IMG/VR virus record: IMGVR_UViG_3300050161_000017
Coordinates: 1-46,478 of that record
Length of the DNA stretch: 46,478 nucleotides
Direction: 5' to 3' (one strand)
Source: a virus
In this document: positions 2,931 through 21,076 of the stretch, in pieces
Position numbering within the stretch: position 1 is the first letter of the stretch
Layout of the letters: each line of letters begins with the position of its first letter
Position numbers and translations under genes: made by a program
The notes under the pieces: generated by a model
Database searches by the model: none
Seen by the model: the letters and a program-made list of their open reading frames with translations, nothing else
Told to the model about the DNA's origin: nothing

Positions 2931-3007
2931 GCGCCGTTAGCTCAACGGGACAGAGCAAAAGATTTCTAATCTTTAGGCTAGAGGTTCGAGTCCTCTACGG
3001 CGCACCA
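2931..3007 (+). tRNA. tRNA-Arg, anticodon UCU, with encoded CCA
   Basis: Cloverleaf folded by hand. Acceptor GCGCCGT/ACGGCGC; D stem GCTC/GAGC; anticodon stem AAAGA/TCTTT with loop TTTCTAA; T arm AGAGG-TTCGAGT-CCTCT; discriminator A plus CCA. Confidence 0.9.
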
Positions 3008-3925: not shown

Positions 3926-4519
3926 TAACCCACGGTGCCTATCATCGCGGGTAGGTTAAATGTTGCGAACTCAAAGCAGCCGTGATTATTAATCAAGAGC
4001 CAGATGGGAACAGGTTCGGCAGGGTCAGGATTGACGCTACTAAATAGAGGGCTGTAAATGTGTAACTGCTAAGTGGTACTAAGACCACAACCGTAACCTT
4101 CACATTGACTTGCAAGTGCAGTAATCAAAACAGGGTGAGCTTGTGTTGGCGCACTTATACCTTAGAACCTGTAAGATTTTCCTCAGAAGATGGTGCTGAC
4201 GCGGCCCAGATCACTATAGATATTAGTTCTAAAATGTGATTTCGATCTCCTGTGTTCCTGTTTCCTTCTGGCTTTTGCTTAAGTTCCTCTTGGTCAGCAG
4301 CCTGATACTTTGAAGTGCCGGTAAGCTCGATGAATTAACCAGCATCTACGCAAACCTGAAAAAAGAGTTAACAACTCAATTGATGAGCATAGACTCAAAA
4401 ATAAGTAATGAATCGCCAGTCTATAAACGGATGATTACTAGCAGAGTCAAAGTACGGTGGTGCAACTCCACTCCAAGAGACCACTAATTAACACGCTTTT
4501 TGTCCTGTGGAGTAAGATA

Positions 4520-4702
4520 ATGCGTAGAATGTGGGTCAACCAGCCGTCCGACCTTCAAGCCCACCACAACCTTCATGGTGTAAATGTGTTGGCTGAAACA
4601 GAAACCGATCAAATTTTCCGTGTTTGGTTTCTGTCCGGGAGTATCCACAGTATGCAACTTCCTCGTGTCGCACTTAGCGAAGGGTGGACCAACAATGGCT
4701 GA
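4520..4702 (+). CDS. Hypothetical protein (60 aa), first gene of the amidoligase island
   Basis: ATG at 4520, 7 nt after GGAG. Its stop overlaps the next start (ATGGCTGA). Confidence 0.45.
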   Translation: MRRMWVNQPSDLQAHHNLHGVNVLAETETDQIFRVWFLSGSIHSMQLPRVALSEGWTNNG

Positions 4703-5042
4703 AATTGTTTATGTCTACGGCACTCTACGCCCCGGTAAACCAGGCACGATACAGATACCGGGAAAGCTTTACGATCTAGGTTGGTTCCCCGGCATCATCC
4801 TAGGCGGCGAGGGTCTCGTCACTTGCGAGAAGATCGAAGTGGAGGATTTAACCGCTGTTGACGCATACGAAGGGTATAACCCTCGGTTCACGATTGAAAG
4901 CTTGTACATCCGCCGTCCGATCTTGGATGGCTGGATTTACGAATACAACCAAGAGTTTGATCCTCAACGACTGGTCGCTTGTGGTGACTGGCTTATTTAT
5001 ACAAGACAGGAGCGCGGAAGAAATGGTGGACGTTTCGGGTAA
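4695..5042 (+). CDS. Gamma-glutamylcyclotransferase (AIG2/GGACT-like), 115 aa
   Basis: N-terminal VYVYGTLRPG and the DAYEGYNP...YIRR catalytic-Glu region typical of the GGCT fold. ATG at 4695 inside tracked ORF 4584..5042. Confidence 0.8.
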   Translation: MAEIVYVYGTLRPGKPGTIQIPGKLYDLGWFPGIILGGEGLVTCEKIEVEDLTAVDAYEGYNPRFTIESLYIRRPILDGWIYEYNQEFDPQRLVACGDWLIYTRQERGRNGGRFG

Positions 5043-6006
5043 GGCGAAAACTGCGCCGATTAAGGCACAGATTGTGTCGGATAAGGTCTTGGCAGACGCC
5101 AAGAAGAAGCTGAATGAGATGACAGCGAGCTGGGTTTACGGAGTGTGCCAAGGAACCTGCCTTGATCTTACCGGCGAGGAGATGGTCACTCCTCACACAG
5201 CCTGCCACTCTTGGGTTGGTTATGCTTATGATAAGGTGCGGCAGGAGTGGGGATGGTCAACCGAATACGTGAAGGGTGCGAAACCGTTCCTTGTGTTGTC
5301 GTGCCACAGCAAGAAACGCAGTGCGAAGATTTGCTCGGGTGAAGCCGTGGATGCAATCATACTGTGGATGGCCCGAGAATCTCCTTTCTCTCGGTTCGTG
5401 TTGAACCGTGACGACGAAGACAGCCTTCTAAACGGCGGTATAATTCTTCTGTGTGGTCCCGGCGCTTTGACACAGGCGCAGGCCATGTGGGTTTGCAAAG
5501 TTCTCCGCTACAGCGTGGAGGGCGGCAAGGCTCTTGATACATGGCTGACGCTCTACAAGGGCGGTGTGAACCCTCTTTTGGCTGTTCTTGTCTGCTCCTA
5601 CGTCCGCACTATTAAAGGTGCTACGTTTGGTTTTACCGGCGTGGAAGGACACAGCACGGTATTCAACTCCTACCCCGAGGGTGTGGCTGATGTTACGTCT
5701 CTGTTGGCGGGTAAGATCAACCCAGCAGCAACCGACACATGGGGTGTGTTCAACAACGGGACCGAGAAGAAAAGCTCCAAGAAAGTCTTACCCTCTGTCG
5801 TTATTAAAAGTTTCTGCAAGCCTTATCAGAAGGATGATGGCTGGGGTGGTAAGATAGATGGCGATGGCGCTGAGGGGCCAGAGTTCGTCAGACGTGTCCT
5901 CGAATGGCAGCGTGAAAATGAACCGGCGGGGACAACGTCCCCTCCTCCACCTCTTCCGCCCTCTCAACCAACAAGCAGCACGGTTTATCTCGAACTTGAT
6001 ATGTAG
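5023..6006 (+). CDS. Hypothetical Cys-rich protein (327 aa) with a Pro-rich C-terminus
   Basis: ATG at 5023 about 10 nt after GGAG. The upstream part of tracked ORF 4858..6006 overlaps the GGCT gene and was trimmed. No recognised domain. Confidence 0.65.
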   Translation: MVDVSGKAKTAPIKAQIVSDKVLADAKKKLNEMTASWVYGVCQGTCLDLTGEEMVTPHTACHSWVGYAYDKVRQEWGWSTEYVKGAKPFLVLSCHSKKRSAKICSGEAVDAIILWMARESPFSRFVLNRDDEDSLLNGGIILLCGPGALTQAQAMWVCKVLRYSVEGGKALDTWLTLYKGGVNPLLAVLVCSYVRTIKGATFGFTGVEGHSTVFNSYPEGVADVTSLLAGKINPAATDTWGVFNNGTEKKSSKKVLPSVVIKSFCKPYQKDDGWGGKIDGDGAEGPEFVRRVLEWQRENEPAGTTSPPPPLPPSQPTSSTVYLELDM

Positions 6007-6017
6007 GAGAATTGACT

Positions 6018-6362
6018 ATGGCGAAAGTTATTTACATTGACGAAGATTTGGTAGAGTTTGATGATAAATCCAAACTTTCTTCGGACCACGAACAAGATTG
6101 TTGTGAAAACCATTACCTCGACTTCTCAGGACTTACTATGCAGGATTTTGAGGGGCTGGATTTTGATCTTTCTTCCGATAGTTTCTTCGAGAAGGTGGAC
6201 GATTATGGTATTCGCCTCCTTCCTCTTAATAGCCACCCCGTCAGTGTTCCTGGTTATGGTTCTAACAATGGTTATTATTCAGCCAACCTGACACTGGTTC
6301 TTGAGAGGCCTGACGAGACAATCAAATTCGATATTTCTGAATGTCAAGTCATCAGCGGTTGA
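6018..6362 (+). CDS. Hypothetical acidic protein (114 aa) with an SDHEQDCCENHY motif
   Basis: ATG at 6018, 9 nt after AGGAG. Confidence 0.7.
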   Translation: MAKVIYIDEDLVEFDDKSKLSSDHEQDCCENHYLDFSGLTMQDFEGLDFDLSSDSFFEKVDDYGIRLLPLNSHPVSVPGYGSNNGYYSANLTLVLERPDETIKFDISECQVISG

Positions 6363-6375
6363 AGGAAAAGCTACG

Positions 6376-7056
6376 ATGATTACTCCTGTAGAATTGAAGC
6401 GTCTAGAGACTGACGCCGGTATCCGTGAAGCTCTTGATCTTCGTGTTTTTGTAGTTGGTGGTGGTTTCCAGTATATGAAGATGTTCTTTGACGCTGGTTT
6501 CAGGGGCGCTCGTTCTGTCGATGATGCGAACATCGTCTGTTTCACTGGTGGCGAGGATGTCGATCCTTCTTACTACAAGGAAAAGGCGTTGCCGGGAACC
6601 CATTACAACACCATGCGCGACGAATACGAAGCCGGTGTCTTCGGAGAAGCTCTTGCGCTGAAACGGCCAATGATTGGTATTTGTCGTGGGGCACAGTTCT
6701 TGAACGTGATGAACGGCGGTTCTTTGTGGCAAGACGTGAACCATCATGCCGGTCGTCAACACAGCGTCCTCGATGTGTTCACTGGCGAGACTTTCGAGGG
6801 CATGACAAGCACTCATCACCAACAGATGCGCCCTGCCGAAGAAGCAGAGATTGTGGCTGTCGCTGCTCTCTCCACCCGCAAAGAAAGTGCTTCCGAGAAG
6901 ATCGAGCGTGACGCCCCTGAGCGTGACGACATCGAAGTTCTTTGGTATCCTGATAGTTTGACGCTATGCTTCCAACCTCACCCCGAGTTCGTTCACGGAG
7001 ACTGTCGGGACTACTTCTTAGGACTCGTCGACAACTACATCCTCCCAGCGTGTTAA
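6376..7056 (+). CDS. Class-I glutamine amidotransferase / peptidase C26-like gamma-glutamyl hydrolase (226 aa)
   Basis: Nucleophile elbow MIGICRGAQFLNVMNGG and the C-terminal CFQPHPEF His/Glu motif. Confidence 0.8.
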   Translation: MITPVELKRLETDAGIREALDLRVFVVGGGFQYMKMFFDAGFRGARSVDDANIVCFTGGEDVDPSYYKEKALPGTHYNTMRDEYEAGVFGEALALKRPMIGICRGAQFLNVMNGGSLWQDVNHHAGRQHSVLDVFTGETFEGMTSTHHQQMRPAEEAEIVAVAALSTRKESASEKIERDAPERDDIEVLWYPDSLTLCFQPHPEFVHGDCRDYFLGLVDNYILPAC

Positions 7057-7066
7057 GGAGAAAATC

Positions 7067-7189
7067 ATGCAAGACTTGCTACTGATTCAGTACCTTCTTT
7101 TCTTGAAAGAAACAGAAAAGGACGAAAAAGTCCGTAATGAGAAGATTCTCAAAGCAGTTTCTGATTACTATATCGGGGAGGGTTTGTAA
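7067..7189 (+). CDS. Hypothetical 40-aa protein
   Basis: ATG at 7067, 6 nt after a perfect AAGGAG. Below the ORF-track cutoff. Confidence 0.5.
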   Translation: MQDLLLIQYLLFLKETEKDEKVRNEKILKAVSDYYIGEGL

Positions 7190-7191
7190 AT

Positions 7192-7386
7192 ATGTGTAAT
7201 CCCGGTGTCAGCCCTATGAGGACAGATGCTCAAATCGCCCAAGAAGCTCGGCACTACCTTAAAGGGTTGCTGGCTTGTGCCAACGAGCTGAGCAAACGCG
7301 GGTATGTGGTCTCTATGAGAGCAGCCTCGGAATATGCCGTGGCTTGGCCCGAAACTCTCGACTTCAAAAAGGAGGTATCTCTATAA
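7192..7386 (+). CDS. Hypothetical protein (64 aa)
   Basis: ATG after GGGGAGGG; TAATG overlap with the next gene. Confidence 0.55.
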   Translation: MCNPGVSPMRTDAQIAQEARHYLKGLLACANELSKRGYVVSMRAASEYAVAWPETLDFKKEVSL

Positions 7387-8600
7387 TGTGCGGCTTAGTA
7401 GGTATATACTCATCCAATATGCTGGCGAAGCATAAAAACGCTCTTGCTGCTATGTTGTATCTAGACACATGGCGAGGGCCAGACAGCACTGGTGTTGCCG
7501 CCATTCGTCATAACGCCGACACTGCTGTTCTTAAATCCACTGTTCCGGGTTACGAGTTCGTTGAAGGTCCGAAGCTCGACCAGCATCTCAAACTCAACGA
7601 CTTCTGCTGGATTGGTCACAACCGTTTCGGCACAGTCGGCAAGAACATCAAGACAAATGCCCATCCATTCACCATCGACGACGATGACGGTGGTTGTTTG
7701 ATTGTCGGTGCCCATAACGGCACTCTCAAAAATAAGCATGTCCTGATCGACCACGCTCAATTTGGTACAGATAGTGAAGCTCTCTACAACAACATCGCTG
7801 TCGAAGGGTTGGAAAAAACCCTCGGGAAGGTGGAAGGCGCTTGGGCGCTGACTTACTACGACCATAACGAAGAAGAGTTGCGCATCATCCGCAATAAGGA
7901 ACGACCCCTCTGCTATGCCTTTGAGGAGGGTCATAAGACCCTAATCTGGGCATCGGAGATGTGGATGATCCGGGTTGCTTGCTCTCGTTTTGACATCAAG
8001 CTCGAAGATGACAAGGTGTATTCATTCGCTGAAGATACGTTGTTTCGCTTCCCTGCTCCGATGAAGATGAATGATGTCCTAGTAATGGAACGAAAAGGGG
8101 GCATAGTCGGCAAGCAGGCTCCCACTTTTTTTCAAAACTGGAACAGGGAGCACTGGCATGGTGGGGGTCACAGGGGGAACCAAACCCCTCACACGCAAAG
8201 AACGTCGGCGCATCCGAGCAGCAGCACGAGCAGCAACGCGAGCAGCAACGCGATAGTAGCTTCGAGTACGCCATCTACGACGAACACTCTAAACAATGGC
8301 GAGAGGCAAGCTACAAAGAACGTCAATTCATCCAGCGACACCTCGAATGGGCCGCCTAACCCTGAAAATAAGGTTCGAGACATTCTCTCAGCTAAGAAGT
8401 ATAGAGGTTTTAACGGTGTTCTCCTGTCCCAAAAAGCGTTGGAAAAGCAGTTGGACGGCGGGTGTGGTTGGTGTGAGCTAGAGTGTATCACAGAGCACGA
8501 TAGATTCGCTTGGCTAGCTCCTAGCAAACCCCTCTGCCACAAGTGCCTTACTGGCCGAGAAGAACCAAGCAAGCAAGAAGCACAAGTTGTGTGTCATTAA
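7386..8600 (+). CDS. Class-II (Ntn) glutamine amidotransferase with a Ser/Thr-rich linker and C-terminal CxxC...CxxC zinc ribbon (404 aa)
   Basis: Starts MCGLVGIY (Cys2 nucleophile), then GHNRFGTVG, NAHPF, GAHNGTLKN and GTDSEAL. ATG at 7386 after AAGGAGG. C-terminus reads CGWCE...CHKC. Confidence 0.8.
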   Translation: MCGLVGIYSSNMLAKHKNALAAMLYLDTWRGPDSTGVAAIRHNADTAVLKSTVPGYEFVEGPKLDQHLKLNDFCWIGHNRFGTVGKNIKTNAHPFTIDDDDGGCLIVGAHNGTLKNKHVLIDHAQFGTDSEALYNNIAVEGLEKTLGKVEGAWALTYYDHNEEELRIIRNKERPLCYAFEEGHKTLIWASEMWMIRVACSRFDIKLEDDKVYSFAEDTLFRFPAPMKMNDVLVMERKGGIVGKQAPTFFQNWNREHWHGGGHRGNQTPHTQRTSAHPSSSTSSNASSNAIVASSTPSTTNTLNNGERQATKNVNSSSDTSNGPPNPENKVRDILSAKKYRGFNGVLLSQKALEKQLDGGCGWCELECITEHDRFAWLAPSKPLCHKCLTGREEPSKQEAQVVCH

Positions 8601-8613
8601 GAAGGAATGAATT

Positions 8614-9432
8614 ATGAAGATCACGGTAGGTTGTGACCCCGAGCTGTTCGTTACGCAGGATGGCAAGTTCCGTTCAGCTCATGGATTGATCCCCGGCACT
8701 AAGGAGAAACCTTTCAAGGTCCAGAACGGTGCTGTCCAAGTTGACGGAATGGCTCTTGAATACAATATTGACCCAGTTGATAACGCCGATGATTTTGTGT
8801 TGTACAATCAGATGGTTATGGCTCAGATGAAGGAGATGGTTCCTGACCACGAGTTTGCAATCGTCCCTTCGTGCAGGTTTAATGGCAACCACTTCCGGGC
8901 ACAGCCCGATGAGGCGAAGGAACTTGGGTGTACGCCCGATTACAACGCTTATAGCATGAGGGCTAATCCTCGTCCTGACAACAAGACAACGATGCGGACT
9001 GCTTCAGGGCACATCCACATCGGCGGCTTCCCCTCTGATAACCCTGATGGCGATGAGCACATGACTCGTTGTGCTACGCTCATCAAGCAGCTCGATTGCT
9101 ACCTCGGCCTGACCTCTCTTCTGTTCGATAAGGACACCCTACGTCGCCAGATGTACGGTGCTGCCGGTGCTTTCCGGCCCAAGCCTTACGGAGTTGAGTA
9201 TCGTGTCCTGTCGAACGCATGGTTGCTAAATGAGAACCGGATGAGGTTTGTGTTTGACCAGACGGTTCGGGCAGTCAACGACCTATTGAAAGGCATTCGT
9301 CCGGTTGACAAGATCGGTGAACAGCGTGTTATCAACACCATCAATAGAAGTGATGCTTTCTCGGCAGGGCGTTTTCTGATCTCTGCCATCCCTGACGGCG
9401 AGCAGATTGTTGCTCAAGCTAGAGCACTTTAA
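8614..9432 (+). CDS. Carboxylate-amine ligase; my best family guess is phage COOH-NH2 ligase type 2, glutamine synthetase-like (272 aa)
   Basis: N-terminal VGCDPELFV, then DGMALEYN and SGHIHIGG. The family was recognised from memory and not searched. Confidence 0.65.
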   Translation: MKITVGCDPELFVTQDGKFRSAHGLIPGTKEKPFKVQNGAVQVDGMALEYNIDPVDNADDFVLYNQMVMAQMKEMVPDHEFAIVPSCRFNGNHFRAQPDEAKELGCTPDYNAYSMRANPRPDNKTTMRTASGHIHIGGFPSDNPDGDEHMTRCATLIKQLDCYLGLTSLLFDKDTLRRQMYGAAGAFRPKPYGVEYRVLSNAWLLNENRMRFVFDQTVRAVNDLLKGIRPVDKIGEQRVINTINRSDAFSAGRFLISAIPDGEQIVAQARAL

Positions 9433-9445
9433 TAGGAGTGAGTTT

Positions 9446-10102
9446 ATGTCTCTCAAAGGTGAAGCCTACGAAACGGCGGAGGAAGTAAAGTTTCGTCTGG
9501 AAAACACTGTTGTCCTATATGATGGTGCTCCTGTTCTTATCAGTCGAGTCAATGTCCCCGAAGAAGTAGATCGTAAGGAAATCGCTCGCGTTTTCTTCTA
9601 CGAACTTCCTTATGGACGGGGTGCGGGCAACGGTAAGGAGGTTCGCAAGTACCTTTCATCGAAGAAGTTTGACTTGGCCCCTTTCAAGATGGGTTATTTC
9701 AATCACAATGGCGGGGCTACTTTCGCATCTCGCATCCCTAACCGGCAGAACAAGCAAGGCATTAACGTCAACACCTGCTCTCTAACCAACATCAGGGGTA
9801 AGCGTTCGGAGATCATTGACTTCGACATGATGGTTGCTTCGCAAGGATTCGTGGACATGGTGGCGGGAAAGTTCCCAACCTTCGCTGAAGCAGGGGAGAT
9901 GCTGGGCGACAAGGAGACCTCCTCTGTTGCTGTAAGTCGCTCGTTTGCGTTCGTGATCAACCACGATCTTGAAGCCTTGCTGCTTATTCATAAAGGTGTT
10001 AAGTGTGGCATAGCTCTGAGGGGTCAAAAAGCCCTCAATCTTCCCCCTAAATTCCACTTCCTTCGGGAAGAAGCTGAAGAATGTCGTATCCCACTGGCTT
10101 AA
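9446..10102 (+). CDS. Hypothetical protein (218 aa) between the two ligases
   Basis: ATG at 9446 after GGAG, inside tracked ORF 9407..10102. No recognised motif. Confidence 0.7.
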   Translation: MSLKGEAYETAEEVKFRLENTVVLYDGAPVLISRVNVPEEVDRKEIARVFFYELPYGRGAGNGKEVRKYLSSKKFDLAPFKMGYFNHNGGATFASRIPNRQNKQGINVNTCSLTNIRGKRSEIIDFDMMVASQGFVDMVAGKFPTFAEAGEMLGDKETSSVAVSRSFAFVINHDLEALLLIHKGVKCGIALRGQKALNLPPKFHFLREEAEECRIPLA

Positions 10103-10116
10103 AGAGAGACACTACA

Positions 10117-11268
10117 ATGACTAGGCTACAAGACTTCTTAAACTCCCCTATTCCGGGCTTGAGTCGTATGATGAAAGCACCGAAGCAGGGTGATCTGTTC
10201 GGCATCGAGCTAGAGTGCGAGGGCCGTGACGTAGATTGGGACGGTTCGGACGCCAATCTCGTGAAGGATTGGGCACCACATGCTGACGGCTCTTTGCGAA
10301 ATAACCACGGTTCTTCTTGTGAGTGGGTGTTTAACGGCCCTGCGTCTTATAAGACCTCACTTCTTCGTGTTAAGAAGTTGTTTGAGTATTTTGAGAAGCG
10401 CAAGACAAAACTTGTCTGCTCTAACAGGACTTCTACACACGTCCACTTCAACATGGGTGACAAGAATGCCTATCAGTTGGTGAATATGTTCATTCTGTTC
10501 ACTATTTTGGAAGACCTTCTTGATCGCTATTGTGGAGAAGATCGTCGTGGGAACCTGTTCTGTCTCTCTTCTCGTCACGCAGAAGAGCAAGTATCGTGGA
10601 TCAGCGATGCTGTGTTTAACAGGCAGAACTTCGGAGCATTTCGGGAAGATTTCCGATATTGTTCACTGAACCTTGCTTCGATTAACAAGTTTGGGACGGT
10701 TGAGTTCCGAGCTATGCGTGGTCTGGACACTGAGGAAGCCGTCGTTACTTGGCTGAGTATCATCAAAGAGTTCTGCGAGTATGCTTGCTATACGATGAAG
10801 AACCCCGTTGACTTGATCGAAGCAATCTCTGTCAAGACTCCTCTTGGTTTTGTCAAGGAGGTGTTCTCGAAGGACAACTCCCTGCTTCTCACTAAGGGTA
10901 TTGACGAGCATGACATCAATGCTTCCATTTATGAAGGTCTCCGGCTCGTTCAGATGATGTGCTATCGCATCGGAACCGAGTTCGATCAGGTGCGTCTTAA
11001 GGGCCGTGATTTTTGGGCATCATTCGGGGGTGATCCAGAACCGGAGTTGGACGTCGCTCCAGAACTTCTGGCAGGACTCGGCAACCCAGCCGATGGTAGG
11101 CTTCGCCGTAGGCCTGCAGGACCTCGAATCGCTAATCTTATCGATAACCCGTTAGTTGTGCTTGAGATTAGAGAGAATCAAGCACGGGCAGAGGCAGTTA
11201 TGGCTCGTCGTTATGCAGACCGCATTGCTGCTCGCTTTGAACCTATTCCTGTTGTGGAGGATTTCTGA
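10117..11268 (+). CDS. Amidoligase (Amidoligase_2-like, GS/GCS fold), about 383 aa; an alternative start is at 10081
   Basis: FGIELECEG, STHVHFN and GTVEFRAMRG motifs. The stop overlaps the next ATG (TGATG). Confidence 0.75.
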   Translation: MTRLQDFLNSPIPGLSRMMKAPKQGDLFGIELECEGRDVDWDGSDANLVKDWAPHADGSLRNNHGSSCEWVFNGPASYKTSLLRVKKLFEYFEKRKTKLVCSNRTSTHVHFNMGDKNAYQLVNMFILFTILEDLLDRYCGEDRRGNLFCLSSRHAEEQVSWISDAVFNRQNFGAFREDFRYCSLNLASINKFGTVEFRAMRGLDTEEAVVTWLSIIKEFCEYACYTMKNPVDLIEAISVKTPLGFVKEVFSKDNSLLLTKGIDEHDINASIYEGLRLVQMMCYRIGTEFDQVRLKGRDFWASFGGDPEPELDVAPELLAGLGNPADGRLRRRPAGPRIANLIDNPLVVLEIRENQARAEAVMARRYADRIAARFEPIPVVEDF

Positions 11269-12035
11269 TGACTAAATTTCGTATCTACCCATACAAGCAA
11301 GGCAGCAAGAGTGCTAAGGCTCTTGCAGAAGCTCTTGAAGGAAAGGTTCTAAAGCATGTCGGGAGTAAGTACAAGCCCAGACTTAGTGACGTCGTTGTTA
11401 ATTGGGGTTCTGCTGCTCCTCCTGTTTTGGCCCCCGCCACCACCCTCAACAAGGATGTCGCAATAGCTCAGTGCAAGCTTAAAACTTTCAAGGCTCTTGG
11501 AGCTGCCGGGGTGCGCATTCCTGACTGCTGGGAGGGCCGTGCAGCAGCGGAGAACGCCCCGGCAGAGAGTTACCCTCTAATGTGCCGAACGGTGCTTAGA
11601 GGGCATTCTGGGGCGGGTATTGTGATCGCCAACAACGCTGATGAACTCGTGGAAGCACCTCTTTACACCAAGTACGTCAAGAAGAAGGATGAGTATCGTG
11701 TCCACGTCCTCAAAGACAAAGCCTTTTTCATTCAGCGTAAGGCCCGAAAGCTTGACAACGACAATCCCGACTGGTTGGTACGAAATCTGGCCGGAGGATT
11801 TGTTTTTGTCGAAGCCCCAGCCGACGAAGTCCCGGCTGATGTCATTAATCAGGCAGTGGCCACAGTTGCTGCGCTGGCTATCGACTTCGGAGGAGTGGAC
11901 GTTATCTGGAACGAAAGAGAAGGTAAAGCCTATGTCCTTGAATGCAACACGGCCTGCGGTCTCGAAGACCGAACCGCAGACAAGTATCAGCAAGCGTTTG
12001 TTGATTTTGTCGCGGATCAGGGACGCCAAGACTAG
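11268..12035 (+). CDS. ATP-grasp ligase (RimK-like), 255 aa
   Basis: EYRVHVLKDKAFFIQRK and the C-terminal YVLECNTACGLE, typical of small ATP-grasp peptide ligases. Confidence 0.75.
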   Translation: MTKFRIYPYKQGSKSAKALAEALEGKVLKHVGSKYKPRLSDVVVNWGSAAPPVLAPATTLNKDVAIAQCKLKTFKALGAAGVRIPDCWEGRAAAENAPAESYPLMCRTVLRGHSGAGIVIANNADELVEAPLYTKYVKKKDEYRVHVLKDKAFFIQRKARKLDNDNPDWLVRNLAGGFVFVEAPADEVPADVINQAVATVAALAIDFGGVDVIWNEREGKAYVLECNTACGLEDRTADKYQQAFVDFVADQGRQD

Positions 12036-12225
12036 GCGTTACCTTGAAATAGATGACACCTGGAATAAAGGGTGCATTTTCTACGATGAAAAGCAGGCTC
12101 AGAGGGAATATTCTTGGCTGAAAGCCCACAGCGATGTTAGAGAATACATCCTCGTAGCTCAAGTAGTTAAACAAAAACCAAAGATCAGTTGTTTTGATGA
12201 TTTAGACGACACCATACCATTCTAA
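12007..12225 (+). CDS. Possible small protein ending in the SSB-like tail FDDLDDTIPF; start unresolved (TTG at 11998, 12001 or 12007, all overlapping the ATP-grasp gene)
   Basis: The frame is open from 11641. There is no ATG, GTG or TTG in frame between 12036 and 12225. The C-terminus mimics the SSB tip. Confidence 0.35.
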   Translation: MSRIRDAKTRRYLEIDDTWNKGCIFYDEKQAQREYSWLKAHSDVREYILVAQVVKQKPKISCFDDLDDTIPF

Positions 12226-12459: not shown

Positions 12460-12646
12460 CCCTCATAGTGCATTAGCCGAGAAACTGTACGGCGAGATAA
12501 CCCCGACTGGAAGGATTAAAGCCAAGACAATCAACTACATGCGGTTGTACGACAGTGGGGAAATCAAAGTCGGCCAAGTGGCGGGCCAGTATCCTGCTAC
12601 AGATTTGTCAAGCCTTGAATTAAGAGTCCTTGCATTATTTGCTTGA
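12452..12646 (+). CDS. 64-aa ORF resembling the family A DNA polymerase fingers segment (motif B / O-helix)
   Basis: ATGAGTGA overlap with the upstream gene. Its SDPHSALAEKLYGEITPTGRIKAKTINYMRLYDSGEIKVGQV aligns by eye with GDPHQYNADLAGVTRVRAKTLLYAIQYGAQAGKVAQI in this phage's DNA polymerase. Confidence 0.5.
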   Translation: MSDPHSALAEKLYGEITPTGRIKAKTINYMRLYDSGEIKVGQVAGQYPATDLSSLELRVLALFA

Positions 12647-12670
12647 CAAATCTGAAAAACCCTGTATAAT
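12643..12670 (+). promoter_or_regulatory. Strong sigma70-type promoter P5 (TTGACA, 16-nt spacer, TATAAT), a near-copy of P4
   Basis: TTGACA at 12643-12648 and TATAAT at 12665-12670. It carries the same conserved leader ATCCTAAAGGAGCGAGGGTGAAAAG. Confidence 0.7.
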
Positions 12671-12927: not shown

Positions 12928-13224
12928 ATGCGGTGCGATATCTGTGATAAGGCACTCTCTGACACAGAGGTTGTCTTCAATAAAGAATTAGTCAATCCCG
13001 ACGGTACTGGCGGATACGAACCTTGTGCAACTTGCCTAGAAATAGCAATGGATGCTGCATTCAGTCAAGGCTTCAATCGTCCTGATGATGAGATTGCTAC
13101 TGAAGTCGGGGACGAGTTCGGTGACGGCATCGTAGAGACTCTTGATACTGATGTTTCCCTGTCTGATTATCAGGAGGGTGACGCCAGCGACATGACAAGA
13201 TACGACACTGATGACTATGATTAA
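12928..13224 (+). CDS. Zinc-ribbon protein with a highly acidic C-terminal half (98 aa)
   Basis: CDICD...CATC at the N-terminus, followed by a D/E-rich tail. Confidence 0.65.
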   Translation: MRCDICDKALSDTEVVFNKELVNPDGTGGYEPCATCLEIAMDAAFSQGFNRPDDEIATEVGDEFGDGIVETLDTDVSLSDYQEGDASDMTRYDTDDYD

Positions 13225-13227
13225 CGC

Positions 13228-13256
13228 TTGACAAAAGTTATAATCTGATGTATTAT
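13228..13256 (+). promoter_or_regulatory. Sigma70-type promoter P6 (TTGACA, 17-nt spacer, TATTAT)
   Basis: GCTTGACAAAAG context. The leader ACTCCTAAGGAG resembles those of P4 and P5. Confidence 0.6.
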
Positions 13257-13275: not shown

Positions 13276-13683
13276 ATGAAGTTTGAAGATGTTGTTTACG
13301 CTAGCTATCCTACAGGTAGTCGCTACATTTGTAATCCCCCACCTCTTGATACCGATAACGACACTGTCTTTCTGGTGAACGGTTACTACGACTGGAAGCA
13401 GATGCTTCTGGATGAAGGTTGGGGGGATTGCGGAGAAGAGTACGAGAAAGGTGAAGATTTTCACGCCTATCGGAAAGGTGAGGAGAACTACATCGTCACT
13501 GAAGATGACGATTTCTATCAATCTTATGTTAAGGCTACCGAAGGTGCCAAGGCGCTCAACCTTCTCAACAAAGAAGATCGCATCAAACTCTTCATTGCTG
13601 TCAATGGTTCAGGCCGTCCGCTCAAGACCACACAGGATCGCGGAGTGTTTGAAATCTGGGATGGGAGGAATATTCCTTTTTGA
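13276..13683 (+). CDS. Hypothetical protein (135 aa); possible minimal pol-beta-type nucleotidyltransferase
   Basis: ATG after AAGGAG. TGSRYICNPPPLDTDNDTVFLV matches the loose GS-x9-DxD-hydrophobic pattern. The function call is tentative. Confidence 0.6.
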   Translation: MKFEDVVYASYPTGSRYICNPPPLDTDNDTVFLVNGYYDWKQMLLDEGWGDCGEEYEKGEDFHAYRKGEENYIVTEDDDFYQSYVKATEGAKALNLLNKEDRIKLFIAVNGSGRPLKTTQDRGVFEIWDGRNIPF

Positions 13684-15323
13684 GTAAATTCCTACGGCAC
13701 GAAGGATGCCCTTCCTGCGGATCATCCGATGGTTTAGCCATCTACGAAGACAACAAACATTGCTTTGTTTGTAATTATCATGAGGCGTCAGCCGACTACG
13801 AGGGAGATTTCGACATAGCAGATAAACACGAGGTCCGCCATGCAGCAGACCGCAACCTAACACCAGTACCGCAACAAGATCAGATCGCAATCAAGGATCG
13901 TGGCATCTCTGCTAACGCTGTGAACAAGTACAAAGTCACTGTAAACACTAACCCTGAAAGTCCTGTCAACCATGTTTATCCTTATTTCGACGAGAACGGA
14001 GCGCATGTTGCCAACAAGGTGCGTCGTAAGGGTGAGAAAGCTTTTTTCTGGGAAGGTGATGTGGGAGCAGGCCGTCTCTTTGGGCAGCAATTGTTCCCTG
14101 CGAACGGAAAAGCCATTACGGTGGTCGAAGGAGAGTGCGATGCTCTTGCGGGTTTCCAACTTACTGGTAGCAAATATCCGTGCGTGTCTGTCAAGTCCTC
14201 TTCTGAGGCCAAGAAAAACTGTGTGGATAATTTCGAGTATCTGAATAGCTTTGAAAAGATCGTAGTCTGTATGGATAACGATGAACCCGGACAGAAGGCA
14301 GCTAATCAAATTGCCCAGCTCTTTGCTCCGGGCAAGGTCCACATCCTCAAACTTAACCTTTGTAAAGACCCTAATGACTATCTTGTTAAGGGTTTGGAGA
14401 AGGAGTATGTCAACGAGTGGTTTCGTGCCCCTGCTTACATGCCTGATGGTCTTCGTCTTGGTTCTGACATGGGGCTGCTGGACGAGATTGTAAACTACAA
14501 GGAGCCGGAGTGCATCCCTTATCCTTGGGCTGGTCTTAACCAGAAGTTGTACGGTATCCGCCTTTCTGAGTTGACGTTGTTCACTGCTGATACTGGCATC
14601 GGTAAGACTACGTTTATGAAGGAAATTGAGTATGCCCTCTTGCAGAATAAAGACCTTCAAGAGAGGGGGTATGGCGTAGGTTTCCTCCATCTGGAAGAAC
14701 CTAAGCGAGAGACTCTTCTGGGGATGCTCTCTATCCACCACAACAAGCCGTATCATCTTCCTGATACGCCTAAGAGTGAGGAAGACATCCGTAAGGCTTA
14801 CAAGGAGGTTCTCGATAACAAGAGAGTAGTAGTCTATGACCATTTCGGCAGTAACGAGATTGATACCATCTTGGCTAAGATTCGTCATATGGCTGCTCTG
14901 GGATGTCGTTATATTGTGCTTGACCACTTGTCTATTATTGTATCAGATCAGTCAGGCGACGAGCGGAAGCAGCTAGATGAGATCAGTACCAAGCTCAAGT
15001 CATTGACGATGAACCTTCAGATTGCTGTCGTAGCTGTCATCCACATCAACAGACAAGGGCAGGTCCGTGGCTCTGCTGGTCCTGAACAGGTTTCTAATAA
15101 CGTCATCCGCCTGACCCGTGACAAAAAGGAAGTCGATGAATGGCGTCGTAACGTAACACAAATGGATGTCGAAAAGTGCCGTCTCTCCGGTAGGACTGGT
15201 CCGGCTTGCTGGATTTTCTACGACAACGACACGGGCCGTCTTGTTGAGTTGACACCTGACCTCGCTAAGAAGTTCCAAGAAGGTGGTTCGCTTGCAGGTG
15301 ATGAGTTTGAAGCATATAACTAA
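13680..15323 (+). CDS. Bifunctional DNA primase-helicase (T7 gp4-like), 547 aa, TTG start
   Basis: Zn finger CPSCGS...CFVC; TOPRIM VVEGECDALA and MDNDEPGQ; DnaB-type Walker A TADTGIGKTT; Walker B YIVLDHLS. Confidence 0.9.
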   Translation: MSKFLRHEGCPSCGSSDGLAIYEDNKHCFVCNYHEASADYEGDFDIADKHEVRHAADRNLTPVPQQDQIAIKDRGISANAVNKYKVTVNTNPESPVNHVYPYFDENGAHVANKVRRKGEKAFFWEGDVGAGRLFGQQLFPANGKAITVVEGECDALAGFQLTGSKYPCVSVKSSSEAKKNCVDNFEYLNSFEKIVVCMDNDEPGQKAANQIAQLFAPGKVHILKLNLCKDPNDYLVKGLEKEYVNEWFRAPAYMPDGLRLGSDMGLLDEIVNYKEPECIPYPWAGLNQKLYGIRLSELTLFTADTGIGKTTFMKEIEYALLQNKDLQERGYGVGFLHLEEPKRETLLGMLSIHHNKPYHLPDTPKSEEDIRKAYKEVLDNKRVVVYDHFGSNEIDTILAKIRHMAALGCRYIVLDHLSIIVSDQSGDERKQLDEISTKLKSLTMNLQIAVVAVIHINRQGQVRGSAGPEQVSNNVIRLTRDKKEVDEWRRNVTQMDVEKCRLSGRTGPACWIFYDNDTGRLVELTPDLAKKFQEGGSLAGDEFEAYN

Positions 15324-15515: not shown

Positions 15516-17318
15516 ATTTATCTTGATTGGGAAACGCAGGCCCAAGACGTTTACGCAGTGGACATCGAAACCGATGGTCTTGATGCAAAGACAATCTGGG
15601 TAATGTGTTGGGAAAATATCAAAACCAAAGAGACGGGGACGTGTACCACTTATGCCGAGATTAGACGATTTTTCGATGAGACTGCTGGTTCTGTTTATGT
15701 CGGCCACAATATCATCCGCTTTGATGCTCCCGTTCTTAACCGATTGGCAGGCACCAAGCTCTCTGTAAGCCAGATCATTGACACCCTTATCCTTACCACT
15801 CTCTACAGCCCGTCGATTAAAGACGGCCACTCTCTCGACGCATGGGGTACTCGGATTGGCCTTCCAAAAGGCGTATTCAATGACTGGACGCACCTCTCTG
15901 ACGAGATGATTGTGTACTGCCAACAAGATGTTTCCATCACCGCCTCACTCTTTAGGAAGATCACCAAAGTCTTGACGAAGATTGGTTTCAGCGAGAAGAC
16001 TTGTTACATCCAACACTACATCACAGCTATTGCAAGCAGACAGCAGAATAGTGGGTTCAAGTTCGATGGCCCTCGTGCTATCCTATTTTATCAACAACTT
16101 CGCAATCGTGAAGAAGAACTACAGGAGTTGATCCGTCATGCGTTTCCCGACGAGCGACGACTTGTGCGTGAACGGAATATACACACCAAGTCTGGACAAG
16201 TTACTGCACTGTATGAACGAGATCGACAGACTTACGACATCGAGATCGTGCCCAATAACAGAGGGACATATAGAGCGTTTGAGAACGTCCCTTTCAATAT
16301 TGGAAGCTCAAAGCAGAGAGTTGAAAAACTTACTGCGCTCGGATGGGTGGCTGATGAAAAGACTCCGAAAGGCTTCCCTAAACCAACAGAAAAGTCTCTG
16401 ATTAGGTTTGCAGAAGAGAGTGGTATCGAAGAAGTAGCTTTGATTACTAAGTGGATGTCTGTCAACGGACGGGCAAACATGATTAACAATTGGTTGGAGA
16501 ACTGGGATGAAGCGACCGGCTGTATTCACGGTAAGTTATTTGTTGCGGACACTCTTCGTTTCCGGCATCAAGCACCTAACACAGCTAACATCCCAGCCGT
16601 TAGAGTTGATAAAAGAGGACTTGTCCTTCTGGGAGAAGAGGGATATTATACTTATGAAGCTAGAGATTTGTGGACCGCAAGGCCGGGTCGTGTACTCATC
16701 GGAACTGATGCGGCAGGGCTTGAACTTAGAATGCTTGCCCACTATCTCAACCGCCCTGAGTTCACAGAACAGGTAGTCAATGGTGATCCTCACCAGTACA
16801 ATGCGGACTTGGCTGGTGTTACTAGGGTAAGGGCCAAGACCTTACTCTATGCCATTCAATACGGTGCTCAAGCCGGTAAGGTTGCCCAGATCATTGAAGG
16901 AACTCGTGAAGAGGGTGCGATGATGAGAGAGCAGTTCCTAGCTAGACTGGGTATCAAAGGAGTCATGGAAGATGCAATGCGTGAGCAAGAATCGGGCAGG
17001 GTCTGGTTGGTGGACGGGGCTGGAGTGGTTTGCCCCTCTCCGCACGCCGCACTCAACTACAAGCTTCAAGGTGGTGGTGCCCGAGTCATGGGCTTAGCTT
17101 GGATCTTGTTAGAGAAAGAGATTAGACGAAAAGGTCTCGATAGTTTCTCCGTAGGCAACATCCATGATGAAATGCAGTACGACGTAGCTCCGGGAGATGC
17201 TGAAGAGCATGGCAGGATAGCAGTTCAAGCTATTCGAGATGCCGGAGAAGAACTGAATCTGAATGTACCGCTAGATGGTACTTCTAAATCTGGCCTTACA
17301 TGGAGTGAAACTCATTGA
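15516..17318 (+). CDS. Family A DNA polymerase with 3'-5' exonuclease domain; the start is either ATT 15516 (proposed) or GTG 15558 (tracked)
   Basis: Exo I VDIETDGL, Exo II GHNIIRFD, Exo III YCQQDV. Motif A GTDAAGLELRMLAH, motif B RAKTLLYAIQYG, motif C NIHDEMQYD. Confidence 0.9.
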   Translation: MYLDWETQAQDVYAVDIETDGLDAKTIWVMCWENIKTKETGTCTTYAEIRRFFDETAGSVYVGHNIIRFDAPVLNRLAGTKLSVSQIIDTLILTTLYSPSIKDGHSLDAWGTRIGLPKGVFNDWTHLSDEMIVYCQQDVSITASLFRKITKVLTKIGFSEKTCYIQHYITAIASRQQNSGFKFDGPRAILFYQQLRNREEELQELIRHAFPDERRLVRERNIHTKSGQVTALYERDRQTYDIEIVPNNRGTYRAFENVPFNIGSSKQRVEKLTALGWVADEKTPKGFPKPTEKSLIRFAEESGIEEVALITKWMSVNGRANMINNWLENWDEATGCIHGKLFVADTLRFRHQAPNTANIPAVRVDKRGLVLLGEEGYYTYEARDLWTARPGRVLIGTDAAGLELRMLAHYLNRPEFTEQVVNGDPHQYNADLAGVTRVRAKTLLYAIQYGAQAGKVAQIIEGTREEGAMMREQFLARLGIKGVMEDAMREQESGRVWLVDGAGVVCPSPHAALNYKLQGGGARVMGLAWILLEKEIRRKGLDSFSVGNIHDEMQYDVAPGDAEEHGRIAVQAIRDAGEELNLNVPLDGTSKSGLTWSETH

Positions 17319-21048: not shown

Positions 21049-21076
21049 GATATGGAACATATCGCTATTACTGGCA

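Follow-up and report, generated by a model that had tools for sequence, protein, structure and literature searches.

The window analysed here, the whole 46,478-nucleotide stretch of the virus record IMGVR_UViG_3300050161_000017, carries at positions 4695-12035 a divergent copy (at most 55% identity) of the widespread podophage "amidoligase cassette". We propose, at a probability of about one half, that the cassette encodes an early, self-contained cytoplasmic pathway in which a gamma-glutamyl-type amide conjugate is built, and afterwards trimmed, on a soluble acceptor bearing an amine or carboxylate. Eleven co-directional and closely packed ORFs span the locus:

4695-5042, + strand: AIG2/GGACT-type gamma-glutamyl(amine) cyclotransferase (GGCT), 115 aa; by Pfam GGACT
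5023-6006, + strand: protein of unknown fold, translationally coupled to GGCT (20-nt overlap), 327 aa; by gene call and metagenomic homologues
6018-6362, + strand: DUF7448-like acidic protein, variable passenger, 114 aa; by a marginal Pfam match
6376-7056, + strand: class-I glutamine amidotransferase / peptidase C26 (gamma-glutamyl hydrolase type), 226 aa; by Pfam and PHROG
7067-7189, + strand: variable passenger, 40 aa; by gene caller
7192-7386, + strand: variable passenger, 64 aa; by gene caller
7386-8600, + strand: class-II (Ntn) glutamine amidotransferase domain (GAT-II), low-complexity linker and C-terminal four-Cys zinc ribbon, 404 aa; by Pfam GATase_6 and PHROG
8614-9432, + strand: phiEco32-type COOH-NH2 ligase (glutamine synthetase (GS)-like carboxylate-amine ligase), 272 aa; by Pfam PF14395 and PHROG
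9446-10102, + strand: conserved protein X, without enzyme-like motif, between the two GS-like ligases, 218 aa; by phrog_11055
10117-11268, + strand: Amidoligase_2 (second GS-like carboxylate-amine ligase) with a disordered C-terminal tail, 383 aa; by Pfam PF12224 and PHROG
11268-12035, + strand: RimK-like ATP-grasp ligase, 255 aa; by PHROG and a profile match to RimK structures

Each of the eleven ORFs has an ATG start codon preceded by a Shine-Dalgarno sequence of the GGAG/AGGA type, and the intergenic spacing ranges from -20 to +14 nt. The junction strings ATGGCTGA (4695-4702), TAATG (7384-7388) and TGATG (11266-11270) are in place, confirming the tight run with coupled junctions noticed in the preliminary description. 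In near-identical public contigs, an independent gene caller gives the same eleven genes at equal lengths. The cassette had been drawn from 4520 to 12225; it is real, but its supported limits are 4695 and 12035. The ORF at 4520-4702, skipped by the gene caller and without a homologue in relatives, is therefore unsupported, and position 12225 belongs to an alternative-frame ORF overlapping the ATP-grasp gene. The strong promoter described at 12643 is real, matching the sigma-70 consensus at 12/12 positions. The upstream "ORF-poor gap" (3926-4519) contains a structured RNA some 520 nt long, which is backed by covariation and has no Rfam entry.

The cassette is found in Zobellviridae (CW02, PA11) and in LUZ24-like, phiEco32-like and RIO-1-like podophages, with a gene order largely in common. 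It lies just upstream of the primase-helicase gene in CW02, KZY1, PA11, UFV-P2 and phiEco32, and the same largely shared order upstream of primase-helicase was identified in 51 further contigs. Comparison across phage genomes bore out the co-occurrence of the core genes: among 24 well-flanked loci (4 kb or more of sequence to either side), the COOH-NH2 ligase is present in 24, GAT-II in 23, the ATP-grasp ligase in 23, Amidoligase_2 in 22 and the class-I amidotransferase in 20. GGCT was detected in 8 of the 24, a count made with an HMM that has low sensitivity for this small protein. The GAT-II gene usually adjoins one of the two GS-like ligases. The run is thus not the discrete accessory island that it had been taken for; it is a conserved podophage block beside the primase-helicase gene, and in base composition it does not stand out from the rest of the genome (G+C 0.503 in the cassette, close to 0.486 in the whole window).

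All six enzyme-family assignments hold, with Pfam or PHROG support and motifs conserved in 13-61 homologues, and the catalytic residues named beforehand (Cys2 of GAT-II, Cys/His/Glu of the class-I amidotransferase and Glu of GGCT) are present and conserved. The COOH-NH2 ligase matches PF14395 (3e-9) and PHROG (8.9e-83), shares 55% identity with its PA11 counterpart and has tblastn matches in 319 of 50,697 phage records. [quoted passage not shown] The homologue alignments retain D-P-E, HxH and E-Y-R in the former and ExE(xE), HxH and E-F-R in the latter, the ExE/HxH/ExR sets being conserved in at least 56 of 61 and at least 41 of 42 homologues, respectively. The ATP-grasp ligase matches PHROG at 1.1e-72, falls just under the Pfam ATP-grasp_3 cut-off (21.5 vs 23.2 bits) and far under the NCBIfam RimK cut-off. 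A profile of six phage homologues finds the RimK structures 5zct and 4iwx as its best solved relatives (7.6e-10), and the enzyme's ExR, D and ExN motifs (E/R/D/E/N residues) are kept in 36 of 37 homologues.

GGCT clears the Pfam GGACT cut-off (5.4e-10), has E. coli YtfP as its best solved relative (4.3e-6) and retains the Y-G motif and catalytic Glu in 13/13 homologues. Its gene stands at the cassette front in this clade, whereas it lies behind the ATP-grasp gene in CW02, UFV-P2 and phiEco32. The class-I enzyme matches Peptidase_C26 (4.6e-21) and PHROG (1.4e-46), with Lin1909 and 7d4r ("probable glutamine amidotransferase") as best solved relatives; its Cys and its H-P-E motif are each found in 35 of 36 homologues. 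The top NCBIfam match, gamma-glutamyl-CDP-amidate hydrolase (4.4e-8), is far under the equivalog cut-off. GAT-II matches GATase_6 (3.4e-14) and PHROG (1.2e-62), and in NCBIfam it aligns only with the N-terminal domain in each of GlmS, PurF and AsnB, a synthase domain being absent. It begins with MCG, the Cys being conserved in 41 of 47 homologues, and a C-terminal CxxC...CxxC pair is kept in most of them. This conserved pair, a predicted zinc ribbon, is new in this analysis.

At least five ORFs had been described as lacking a domain; they prove to be of different kinds, with 9446-10102 and 5023-6006 being conserved components. Protein X matches phrog_11055 (function unknown, 3.2e-19) and nothing in Pfam. 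A whole-library HMM search (E <= 1e-3) found 3,908 protein clusters, and every one of the best 150 is a standalone protein, roughly 100-270 aa long. In most loci, X lies between the COOH-NH2 ligase and Amidoligase_2, and where it is detected it is almost always so placed. Its counterpart by position in phiEco32, gp85, can be aligned with it from end to end (hhalign E = 0.009), and both carry the P-x-R-Q-x-x-x-G motif. Structure prediction gave a model of pLDDT 88.3 with no significant match in the PDB, the top hits being EF-P/eIF5A beta-barrels (E = 0.036, TM 0.22). The protein has a pI of 8.7, and Arg, Ser, Gln and Gly, none of them an acid-base catalyst, make up its invariant residues. The invariant residues, standalone matches and inter-ligase position suggest a partner rather than an enzyme. 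That X is a frequent cassette partner without enzyme-like features is new here.

The 327-aa protein has no match in Pfam, PHROG, NCBIfam or PADLOC and has 86 metagenomic homologues. Its matches in BFVD are uncharacterised proteins of CW02 (4.3e-8), CVT22 and GAP52, and its invariant residues include C61-H62, N128, D131, K159, R162, E166, H210 and D272-G-W-G. The overlap with the GGCT gene, at 17-32 nt, is retained in six further clade contigs. Also new is that this GGCT-coupled ORF yields a confident AlphaFold2 prediction (pLDDT 88.7, pTM 0.86) without a fold match in the PDB (best E = 1.7). The remaining three ORFs, 6018-6362, 7067-7189 and 7192-7386, are variable passengers outside the core and are absent from close relatives. 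The first matches DUF7448 marginally (8.7e-6; 26.5 bits vs a cut-off of 27) and does not occur in L059 or L060, both close relatives; the other two have neither a family match nor a homologue in relatives.

The cassette proteins are all soluble, and since transmembrane segments and signal-like N-termini are lacking throughout, the pathway is placed in the cytoplasm. An early role is likewise suggested by analogy, because a homologous cassette in PSA-HP1 is "expressed immediately" after infection (PMC7082346).

The build-and-trim logic of the preliminary description is consistent with each enzyme's closest characterised relatives, and the chemistry may run as follows. The two GS-fold ligases would each convert a carboxylate to an acyl-phosphate and then couple an amine or ammonia, with protein X holding them together or presenting the substrate. 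The Ntn amidotransferase, which lacks its own synthase domain, would dock through its zinc ribbon and either pass glutamine-derived ammonia to a ligase or hydrolyse a gamma-glutamyl amide. The RimK-like enzyme could attach another amino acid, with glutamate the likeliest, and the C26 hydrolase and GGCT with its coupled 327-aa protein would take the gamma-glutamyl group off or recycle it.

Characterised GS-fold ligases (GlnA, GshA, PuuA and PafA) activate the gamma-carboxylate of glutamate, and in butirosin synthesis an ATP-grasp ligase and a GGCT (BtrJ/BtrG) form a gamma-glutamyl protect-and-deprotect pair. PDB searches found no sequence relative of either GS-like ligase, and as neither has a solved or characterised one, gamma-glutamyl specificity would be an extrapolation from the fold. 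The trimming enzymes point to the same theme, as judged from their nearest characterised relatives, which act on soluble gamma-glutamyl amides: the C26 enzyme resembles gamma-glutamyl-CDP-amidate hydrolase and gamma-glutamyl-GABA hydrolase, and GGCT is a member of the GGACT/YtfP family. A small amine, a peptide or a nucleotide-linked precursor could serve as the acceptor; phage DNA probably does not. A macromolecular target would fit as well as a soluble acceptor: the conserved non-enzymatic partner X and the GAT-II zinc ribbon suit it equally, and RimK, to which the ATP-grasp enzyme is most closely related, is a protein-modifying enzyme. For the soluble-conjugate pathway, the trimming half may not be universal, given the GGCT count above. 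Also counting against this pathway, LUZ24-like and phiEco32-like cassettes (UFV-P2 and phiEco32 loci) lack the class-I amidotransferase that is present here.

The preliminary description was correct in linking the cassette to the phiEco32-type neighbourhoods of a 2009 amidoligase survey. Since then it has been reported on several occasions, and passages in PMC5498523 and PMC11945000, both citing Hardies 2013, refer to a "seven-gene peptidoglycan modification cassette". As the cassette has been noted in many tailed phages and literature searches found no report of a biochemical product or target, in line with the preliminary description, the puzzle of its product is real but not new. Collectively, the shared gene order, the co-occurrence and the matching genus counts are evidence that the cassette is selected as a unit.

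The six enzyme-family assignments made in the preliminary description hold in profile searches, five of them above the curated Pfam cut-offs and the ATP-grasp protein through PHROG and a RimK profile.

Enzymes of the cassette with their profile matches (E-values; bit scores against the curated cut-offs)
4695–5042 (+), gamma-glutamylcyclotransferase-like protein (GGCT): Pfam GGACT, 5.4e-10
6376–7056 (+), GATase1/C26: Pfam Peptidase_C26, 4.6e-21, 76 vs 20.5 bits
7386–8600 (+), GAT-II: Pfam GATase_6, 3.4e-14
8614–9432 (+), COOH-NH2 ligase: Pfam COOH-NH2_lig (PF14395), 3e-9, 36.9 vs 25 bits; PHROG 8.9e-83
10117–11268 (+), Amidoligase_2: Pfam Amidoligase_2 (PF12224), 1.9e-7, 31.7 vs 22 bits; PHROG 7e-50
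11268–12035 (+), ATP-grasp: slightly under the Pfam cut-off; phrog_2599, 1.1e-72

The two ligases of glutamine synthetase-like (GS-like) type lie in the same operon, with the second 685 nt downstream of the first. PHROG matches of the enzymes other than the ATP-grasp protein range from 1.4e-46 to 8.9e-83, with the exception of GGCT (2.6e-6). A six-sequence profile of the ATP-grasp protein matched RimK structures at 7.6e-10. The catalytic residues, which the preliminary description had named as a test of these assignments, are present and conserved across 13–61 homologues from diverse contigs. Every cassette protein lacks a transmembrane segment and a signal-like N-terminus. NCBIfam models found no synthase domain attached to GAT-II, which in most homologues carries a four-Cys zinc ribbon at its C-terminus, following a variable linker. 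Assignment to named subfamilies is a different matter. The ATP-grasp protein scores 23.6 bits against the 143.4 bits of TIGR00768 (RimK alpha-L-glutamate ligase), and it is RimK-like in fold and motifs only. In NCBIfam, the C26 protein stays at 17.6 against 266 bits for the PuuD equivalog and at 33.4 against 250 bits for that of gamma-glutamyl-CDP-amidate hydrolase, and neither GS-like ligase has an equivalog. The PADLOC defence-system models gave no match to ten cassette proteins at E ≤ 0.01.

The cassette was described as tightly packed, and its layout bears this out: eleven ORFs with ATG starts occupy 4695–12035, each preceded by a Shine-Dalgarno-like sequence and separated from its neighbor by −20 to +14 nt, and the three quoted junction strings are all in their places. 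Independent gene calls on near-identical public contigs return the same eleven products. The borders of the run had been drawn too wide. The ORF at 4520–4702 is missing from the independent gene calls and has no homologue in relatives, and position 12225 is the end of an overlapping ORF in an alternative frame, the cassette itself ending at 12035. A 202-nt gap, a small ORF and then the promoter at 12643 follow on the 3′ side; this promoter, already noted as strong, matches the sigma-70 consensus perfectly (12/12).

Features of the window outside the cassette
2931–3007 (+), single tRNA-Arg gene, anticodon TCT, early region
12643–12670 (+), host-type sigma-70 promoter, 12/12
12928–13224 (+), Zn-ribbon acidic protein
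13228–13256 (+), host-type sigma-70 promoter, 11/12
13680–15323 (plus arm), primase-helicase
15558–17318 (plus arm), PolA
19262–19636 (+), HNH/NUMOD4 homing-endonuclease-type gene
19889–20731 (+), Cas4-domain exonuclease
20816–21457, cell-wall hydrolase
22479–22832 (+), MazZ-like dATP/dGTP diphosphohydrolase N-terminal domain (PF18909, 2.2e-21)
23052–23699 (+), ThyX
23605–25626 (+), class-II ribonucleotide reductase (RNR)

The window is an essentially complete podophage genome of ~46.5 kb. Its plus arm carries the tRNA-Arg, early genes, the cassette, primase-helicase, PolA, nucleases, ThyX and the class-II RNR, and its minus arm the terminase, portal, scaffold, major head, head-closure and internal virion proteins. 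Both near-perfect promoters lie within 600 nt of each other, downstream of the cassette and upstream of the primase-helicase. The Zn-ribbon acidic protein, downstream of the promoter at 12643, has an N-terminal four-Cys zinc ribbon (C-x-I-C ... E-P-C-x-x-C) and a highly acidic, variable C-terminal tail. It has no family match and has homologues in five of the compared loci (L016, L019, L020, L059 and L060); several contigs with the cassette keep it in the interval from the ATP-grasp gene to the primase-helicase. We considered it as a LysW-like carrier and rejected it, as its C-terminus is not conserved. The homing-endonuclease-type gene and the Cas4-domain exonuclease both belong to the replication arm. 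The MazZ-like domain, ThyX and the RNR form a nucleotide-metabolism trio; a 2-aminoadenine genome is not indicated, since no PurZ-like gene was seen. Megablast of the cassette region against 50,697 phage records found no nucleotide-level relative, and a single-protein scan of IMG/VR found no near-identical phage. The polymerase of the window reaches no more than 37% identity with the polymerases of isolated phages, and about 100 metagenomic relatives were found on contigs of 44–51 kb.

The run had been taken for a discrete accessory island. It is instead a conserved cassette, shared with isolated phages and situated upstream of the primase-helicase. Salinivibrio phage CW02, the oyster-virome phage KZY1 and Pseudomonas phage PA11, all Zobellviridae, have the same genes in the same order directly upstream of the primase-helicase, and UFV-P2 (LUZ24-like) and phiEco32 have the same set with GAT-II shifted behind the second ligase. 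Local tblastn identities are 31–55% for the COOH-NH2 ligase (55% in PA11), 32–44% for the ATP-grasp protein and 27–31% for Amidoligase_2, and protein identity to any isolated phage lies between 23 and 55%. The window presents the gene families of the phage amidoligase cassette known from phiEco32, LUZ24/PaP3/tf/UFV-P2, PA11/TC6, CW02 and RIO-1/PSA-HP1 (Iyer et al. 2009; Hardies et al. 2013; Duhaime et al. 2017): COOH-NH2 ligase, Amidoligase_2, GAT-II, RimK-like ATP-grasp and GGCT, and, as in the Zobellviridae cassettes, GATase1 too. The core of a ligase, a small protein of no known function and a second ligase, as well as the site just upstream of the primase-helicase, are common to all of them. 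The window differs in having GGCT at the front, coupled to a 327-aa protein of novel fold, and in its additional passenger ORFs (one DUF7448-like and two small ones). CW02, PA11 and KZY1 also have a phage sigma-factor gene between primase-helicase and polymerase, whereas none was seen in the window.

Among the 50,697 phage records, 319 have the COOH-NH2 ligase and 298 have Amidoligase_2, with matching genus distributions. A scan of the GTDB genome collection with a profile of the COOH-NH2 ligase returned 51 loci (L008–L058), every one of which is on a phage-like contig or a short fragment, and no chromosomal or cellular context was recognisable among them. Most of the loci are short fragments or MAG contigs of roughly 45–55 kb, many of the longer contigs measure 42–56 kb, and the 51 matches are filed under Patescibacteria, Saccharibacteria, Cyanobacteria, a Woesearchaeota MAG and other phyla. 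Most likely, these contigs are phage genomes mis-binned into MAGs, and host assignment by MAG binning is unreliable. Iterated HMMs over all loci recovered a core string of ligase, X (the 218-aa protein at 9446–10102) and ligase, with GAT-II directly before the first ligase or after the second. Some variant contigs have two paralogous COOH-NH2 ligases and some a second copy of GAT-II (variant loci L052, L055 and L058; L028, L029, L033, L051 and L057).

Occurrence of cassette members in the 24 loci flanked by at least 4 kb on each side (simple ORF finder and home-made HMMs)
COOH-NH2 ligase: 24/24
GAT-II: 23/24
ATP-grasp: 23/24
Amidoligase_2: 22/24
GATase1: 20/24
Primase-helicase: 19/24
X: at least 15/24
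GGCT: at least 8/24

Since X and GGCT are short and divergent, their counts are to be read as minima.

Three features of the cassette are new to the parts list, namely that X belongs to a huge dark family, that the product of ORF 5023 (5023–6006) is coupled to GGCT and has a novel fold, and that the zinc ribbon of GAT-II is conserved. X is a frequent cassette member, and a whole-library profile search of metagenomes matched 3,908 clusters (distinct at 50% identity) at E ≤ 1e-3 and 2,091 at E ≤ 1e-10; the best 150 of the 3,908 are all standalone proteins of roughly 100–270 aa. Its positional equivalent in phiEco32, gp85, aligns end to end in hhalign at E = 0.009, and the motif P-x-R-Q-x-x-x-G is found in both. 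The AlphaFold2 model of X (pLDDT 88.3) has no significant Foldseek match in the PDB, the best being EF-P/eIF5A beta-barrels (E = 0.036, TM 0.22). The invariant residues of X are Arg, Ser, Gln and Gly, which suggests a role in binding or as a scaffold rather than in catalysis; its C-terminus is a conserved R-I-P-x-A. In the loci where X was not detected, Amidoligase_2 has an N-terminal extension of 100–280 aa, heterogeneous and in some cases Cys-rich, in which HMM, BLAST and hhalign found no X-like signal.

ORF 5023 overlaps the GGCT gene by 20 nt in the window and by 17–32 nt in six further contigs of the clade. Its AlphaFold2 model (pLDDT 88.7) has no Foldseek match in the PDB (best E = 1.7). 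Its matches in BFVD are uncharacterised proteins from CW02, CVT22 and the phiEco32-like phage GAP52, a family link that comes from this fold search only; with hhalign, the ~300-aa proteins encoded upstream of the ligase by phiEco32 (gp87) and UFV-P2 (gp20) showed no resemblance to it. The invariant Cys-His, Asn/Asp, Lys, Arg, Glu and His residues suggest that the protein is an enzyme. Profile searches of the PDB sequences with the ORFs of no recognised family returned nothing. The passengers, i.e. the DUF7448-like ORF (6018–6362) and the small ORFs at 7067–7189 and 7192–7386, are missing in close relatives.

Beyond family membership, all that we say about function is what we infer from these data. 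They describe a cytoplasmic set under strong co-selection, consisting of three ATP-dependent amide-bond formers, two proteins of glutamine-amidase fold, one of gamma-glutamylamine cyclotransferase fold and two partner proteins whose models have no significant match in the PDB. Characterised GS-fold ligases activate the gamma-carboxylate of glutamate, and a standalone Ntn amidotransferase is either an ammonia donor or, as in EgtC, a cleaver of gamma-glutamyl amides. The nearest named relatives of the C26 protein in NCBIfam hydrolyse gamma-glutamyl-CDP-amidate and gamma-glutamyl-GABA, and GGCT is a member of the GGACT/YtfP group. The common denominator of the cassette would be gamma-glutamyl amide chemistry, with the ligase–X–ligase unit as the synthetic core and the zinc ribbon as the possible tether of GAT-II to it. 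Because the GS-fold, C26, GGCT and Ntn relatives share this chemistry, we favour a pathway that builds and trims a gamma-glutamyl-type conjugate on a soluble acceptor, at a probability of about 0.5. Two characterised systems offer partial precedents. PuuA/PuuD and the Campylobacter gamma-glutamyl-CDP-amidate hydrolase step pair a GS-fold gamma-glutamyl-amide ligase with a C26-fold hydrolase, a pairing that the window would repeat; its C26 protein matches both hydrolase families far below their equivalog cut-offs. The phage ligases, however, have no detectable sequence relationship to PuuA/GlnA, and the cassette goes beyond these systems by two further ligases and an Ntn amidotransferase. In butirosin biosynthesis, the ATP-grasp ligase BtrJ is combined with the AIG2/GGCT-fold cyclotransferase BtrG, which later takes off the gamma-glutamyl group. 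The window may use the same combination by analogy, although the cassette has neither an acyl-carrier protein nor aminoglycoside genes.

The reading closest to the literature is remodelling of the peptidoglycan stem peptide, in which the ligases would make unusual amide bonds of a phage-directed peptide on cytoplasmic precursors while the amidotransferases and GGCT amidate or degrade the host version, so that superinfection is blocked or the wall is readied for lysis. Peptidoglycan itself has a gamma-glutamyl bond, and its stem peptides are amidated by glutamine-dependent enzymes (MurT/GatD and AsnB-type), which by analogy may count in favour. The cytoplasmic nature of all cassette proteins is compatible with action on UDP-MurNAc-peptide, and the window carries a cell-wall hydrolase (20816–21457). 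A seven-gene "peptidoglycan modification cassette" has been named in RIO-1-like podoviruses and listed for phiEco32, 7-11, PA11, tf, MR299-2, LUZ24, PaP3 and CW02 (PMC5498523), and the LUZ24-like phage U17 bears the same label (PMC11945000); both papers trace the idea to Iyer et al. 2009 and Hardies et al. 2013. Experiments on such an action were not found in the literature. The ligases are outside the Mur-ligase and Ddl families, Ddl structures align with no more than the C-terminal ATP-grasp core, at 1e-4 or weaker against 7.6e-10 for RimK, and the cassette has no UDP-sugar-binding or membrane component. Cassette contigs are binned with Gram-negatives, Clostridia, Actinobacteria, Saccharibacteria and Cyanobacteria, whose wall chemistries differ widely, which is weak evidence. 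An amidoligase and a GATase are reported in a Poseidoniales virus, and a GlmS-type glutaminase, two ATP-grasp proteins and GGCT in a nanohaloarchaeal virus; archaea lack murein, and the host predictions are again weak evidence. The absence of Mur and Ddl relatives, the spread of host walls and the reports of some of these families in viruses assigned to archaea together weigh weakly against a role in peptidoglycan, which we consider unlikely.

A protein of the host or the phage may instead be the target, to which the ligases would add glutamate or a tag of gamma-glutamyl or peptide type, with X as a substrate adaptor or modified carrier and the amidases de-tagging or recycling, in analogy to RimK acting on ribosomal protein S6, PafA–Pup and LysX–LysW. 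RimK, the poly-glutamate ligase of S6, is the best solved relative of the ATP-grasp protein and has the ExR, D and ExN motifs in common with it, and in NCBIfam the scores of ATP-grasp peptide maturases are close to that of RimK. The window protein is nevertheless shorter (255 aa) and embedded with GS-like ligases, which RimK is not, and its 23.6 bits are to be set against the RimK family cut-off of 143. Pupylation relies on two paralogous GS-fold enzymes, PafA and Dop, which act on a glutamate gamma-carboxylate, and GGACT cleaves free gamma-glutamyl-epsilon-lysine; by analogy, both could speak for tagging. X, conserved and without invariant residues of catalytic type, has a model that weakly resembles the EF-P/eIF5A beta-barrels, and EF-P and eIF5A bear unusual amide-type modifications, but this similarity is not significant (E = 0.036, TM 0.22). 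The zinc ribbon of GAT-II could dock on a protein. On the other hand, no small protein of Pup or LysW type that ends in a conserved Glu/Gln (GGQ/GGE or EDWGE-like) is present: the small ORFs of the cassette, which relatives do not conserve, terminate in GEGL and EVSL, and X in R-I-P-x-A. The ORFs scanned revealed neither a proteasome nor an AAA partner. MurT/GatD, in which a ligase with a standalone class-I glutaminase amidates a carboxylate, invites a similar comparison, but the cassette has neither a Pup-like tag nor a Mur-ligase domain, and the likeness to pupylation and MurT/GatD is one of logic, not of family. Protein tagging is unlikely in our estimate. We hold equally tentative the wider proposition that the cassette is a phage covalent conjugation system rather than a metabolite pathway. 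In such a system, GS-fold and RimK-like ligases, with X as adaptor or carrier, could tag a host or phage macromolecule early in infection, the tag being edited or recycled by the Ntn, C26 and GGCT enzymes. If true, it would be a viral counterpart of pupylation or RimK-type glutamylation, serving host takeover or defence evasion.

Hypermodification of DNA or nucleotides, by which the ligases and amidotransferases would put an amino-acid-type group on a base to evade restriction, is improbable. The cassette always adjoins replication genes, the window has ThyX, a class-II RNR and the MazZ-like dATP/dGTP diphosphohydrolase domain, and the observation by Lee et al. 2021 (PMC8989533) that viral contigs associate amidoligase and glutamine-amidotransferase Pfam domains with genes for thymidine hypermodification points the same way. 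Against it, a 5-hmdU kinase, aGPT-Pplase, dUMP hydroxymethylase, DpdA or PurZ-like protein was not found among those plus-arm ORFs that were scanned with Pfam. In addition, 11 of 16 restriction enzymes cleave the DNA of U17, a LUZ24-like phage that bears the cassette (PMC11945000), and the papers searched report no modification for phiEco32, LUZ24, PA11 or CW02. Auxiliary nitrogen or glutathione metabolism, boosting host nitrogen assimilation or the gamma-glutamyl cycle during infection, is barely credible: the fold set superficially resembles that cycle and such a role was proposed for a Planctomycetes phage with amidoligase, GATase, 'glutathione synthase' and GGCT (PMC10945688), but this proposal is based on annotation and growth correlation only, the ligase families are essentially phage-restricted (51/51 genome-collection matches lack cellular metabolic context) and without an NCBIfam equivalog, and strictly lytic phages with short infection cycles retain the cassette.

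That no product or role is known, as stated in the preliminary description, agrees with the literature, in which we found annotation-level mentions only and no biochemical product, target or mutant phenotype. Other papers speculate on secondary metabolites, superinfection immunity and nitrogen metabolism. The cassette genes of PSA-HP1 are "expressed immediately" (PMC7082346), the only report of immediate-early expression.

The region upstream of the cassette, previously described as an ORF-poor gap, is not empty and contains a structured RNA. It aligns to the gene-free gaps of six other distinct contigs of the clade (a seventh locus, L061, duplicates L059 and is not counted).

Positions of the upstream RNA in the window and in the six clade contigs
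Window: 3985–4500 (+)
L059: 1615–2165
L060: 650–1230
L062: 2364–3396
L063: 1890–2722
L064: to 3093
L065: 2742–3244

The RNA lies ~1 kb downstream of the tRNA-Arg gene and measures ~520 nt in the window and up to ~1 kb in relatives, with blocks of 30–50 nt that are 100% identical between genomes whose proteins are only ~75% identical. Its 5′ domain has 52 pairs, made up of a closing helix of 23 bp and the helices nested within it, and 94.6% of cells are paired. Compensatory changes are found in 30 of the 52 pairs, against 15.2 ± 2.4 in shuffles (0/500 reach 30) and 4–8 in slid controls. The plus strand is the RNA strand, because two G-U pairs are invariant and a third is nearly so. In the 3′ domain, a covarying hairpin bears a loop of 15 nt that hardly varies (GYCAGUCUAUAAACG); a T-arm-like hairpin, GUGG-UGCAACU-CCAC, comes next and shows compensatory variants. 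Rfam gave no match at E ≤ 1 for the window or at E ≤ 0.5 for three relatives, and ARAGORN found no tRNA or tmRNA in the region. A covariance model of the 3′ domain and nhmmer detected the RNA in the clade of the window only, not in other cassette-bearing lineages, and we therefore rejected the idea that it generally belongs to the cassette. The RNA may represent a large new ncRNA of phages, and its novelty arguably exceeds that of the cassette.

Collectively, the window copy is a divergent example of a known phage system that a specialist would recognise at once, and the additions to its parts list refine the overall picture but leave it unchanged. The window opens no new route to the product of the cassette but provides a sharper parts list, and cultured phages, LUZ24, PA11 and phiEco32 among them, are better suited to the question. 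The cassette is a considerable investment for a lytic phage, with eleven ORFs taking up ~7.3 kb of a 46-kb genome (roughly 16%). Eight of the eleven are conserved across the clade of the window, and the cassette is retained across phage families at only 23–55% protein identity. Carriers of the signature ligase include Pseudomonas and E. coli phages studied for therapy, and more than 15 years after the first prediction we found no report of a product, target or phenotype. Solving the cassette would assign a function to two GS-like ligase families lacking a solved structure and to two more families, modelled confidently but resembling no known fold, and it could reveal a new chemistry of early host takeover.
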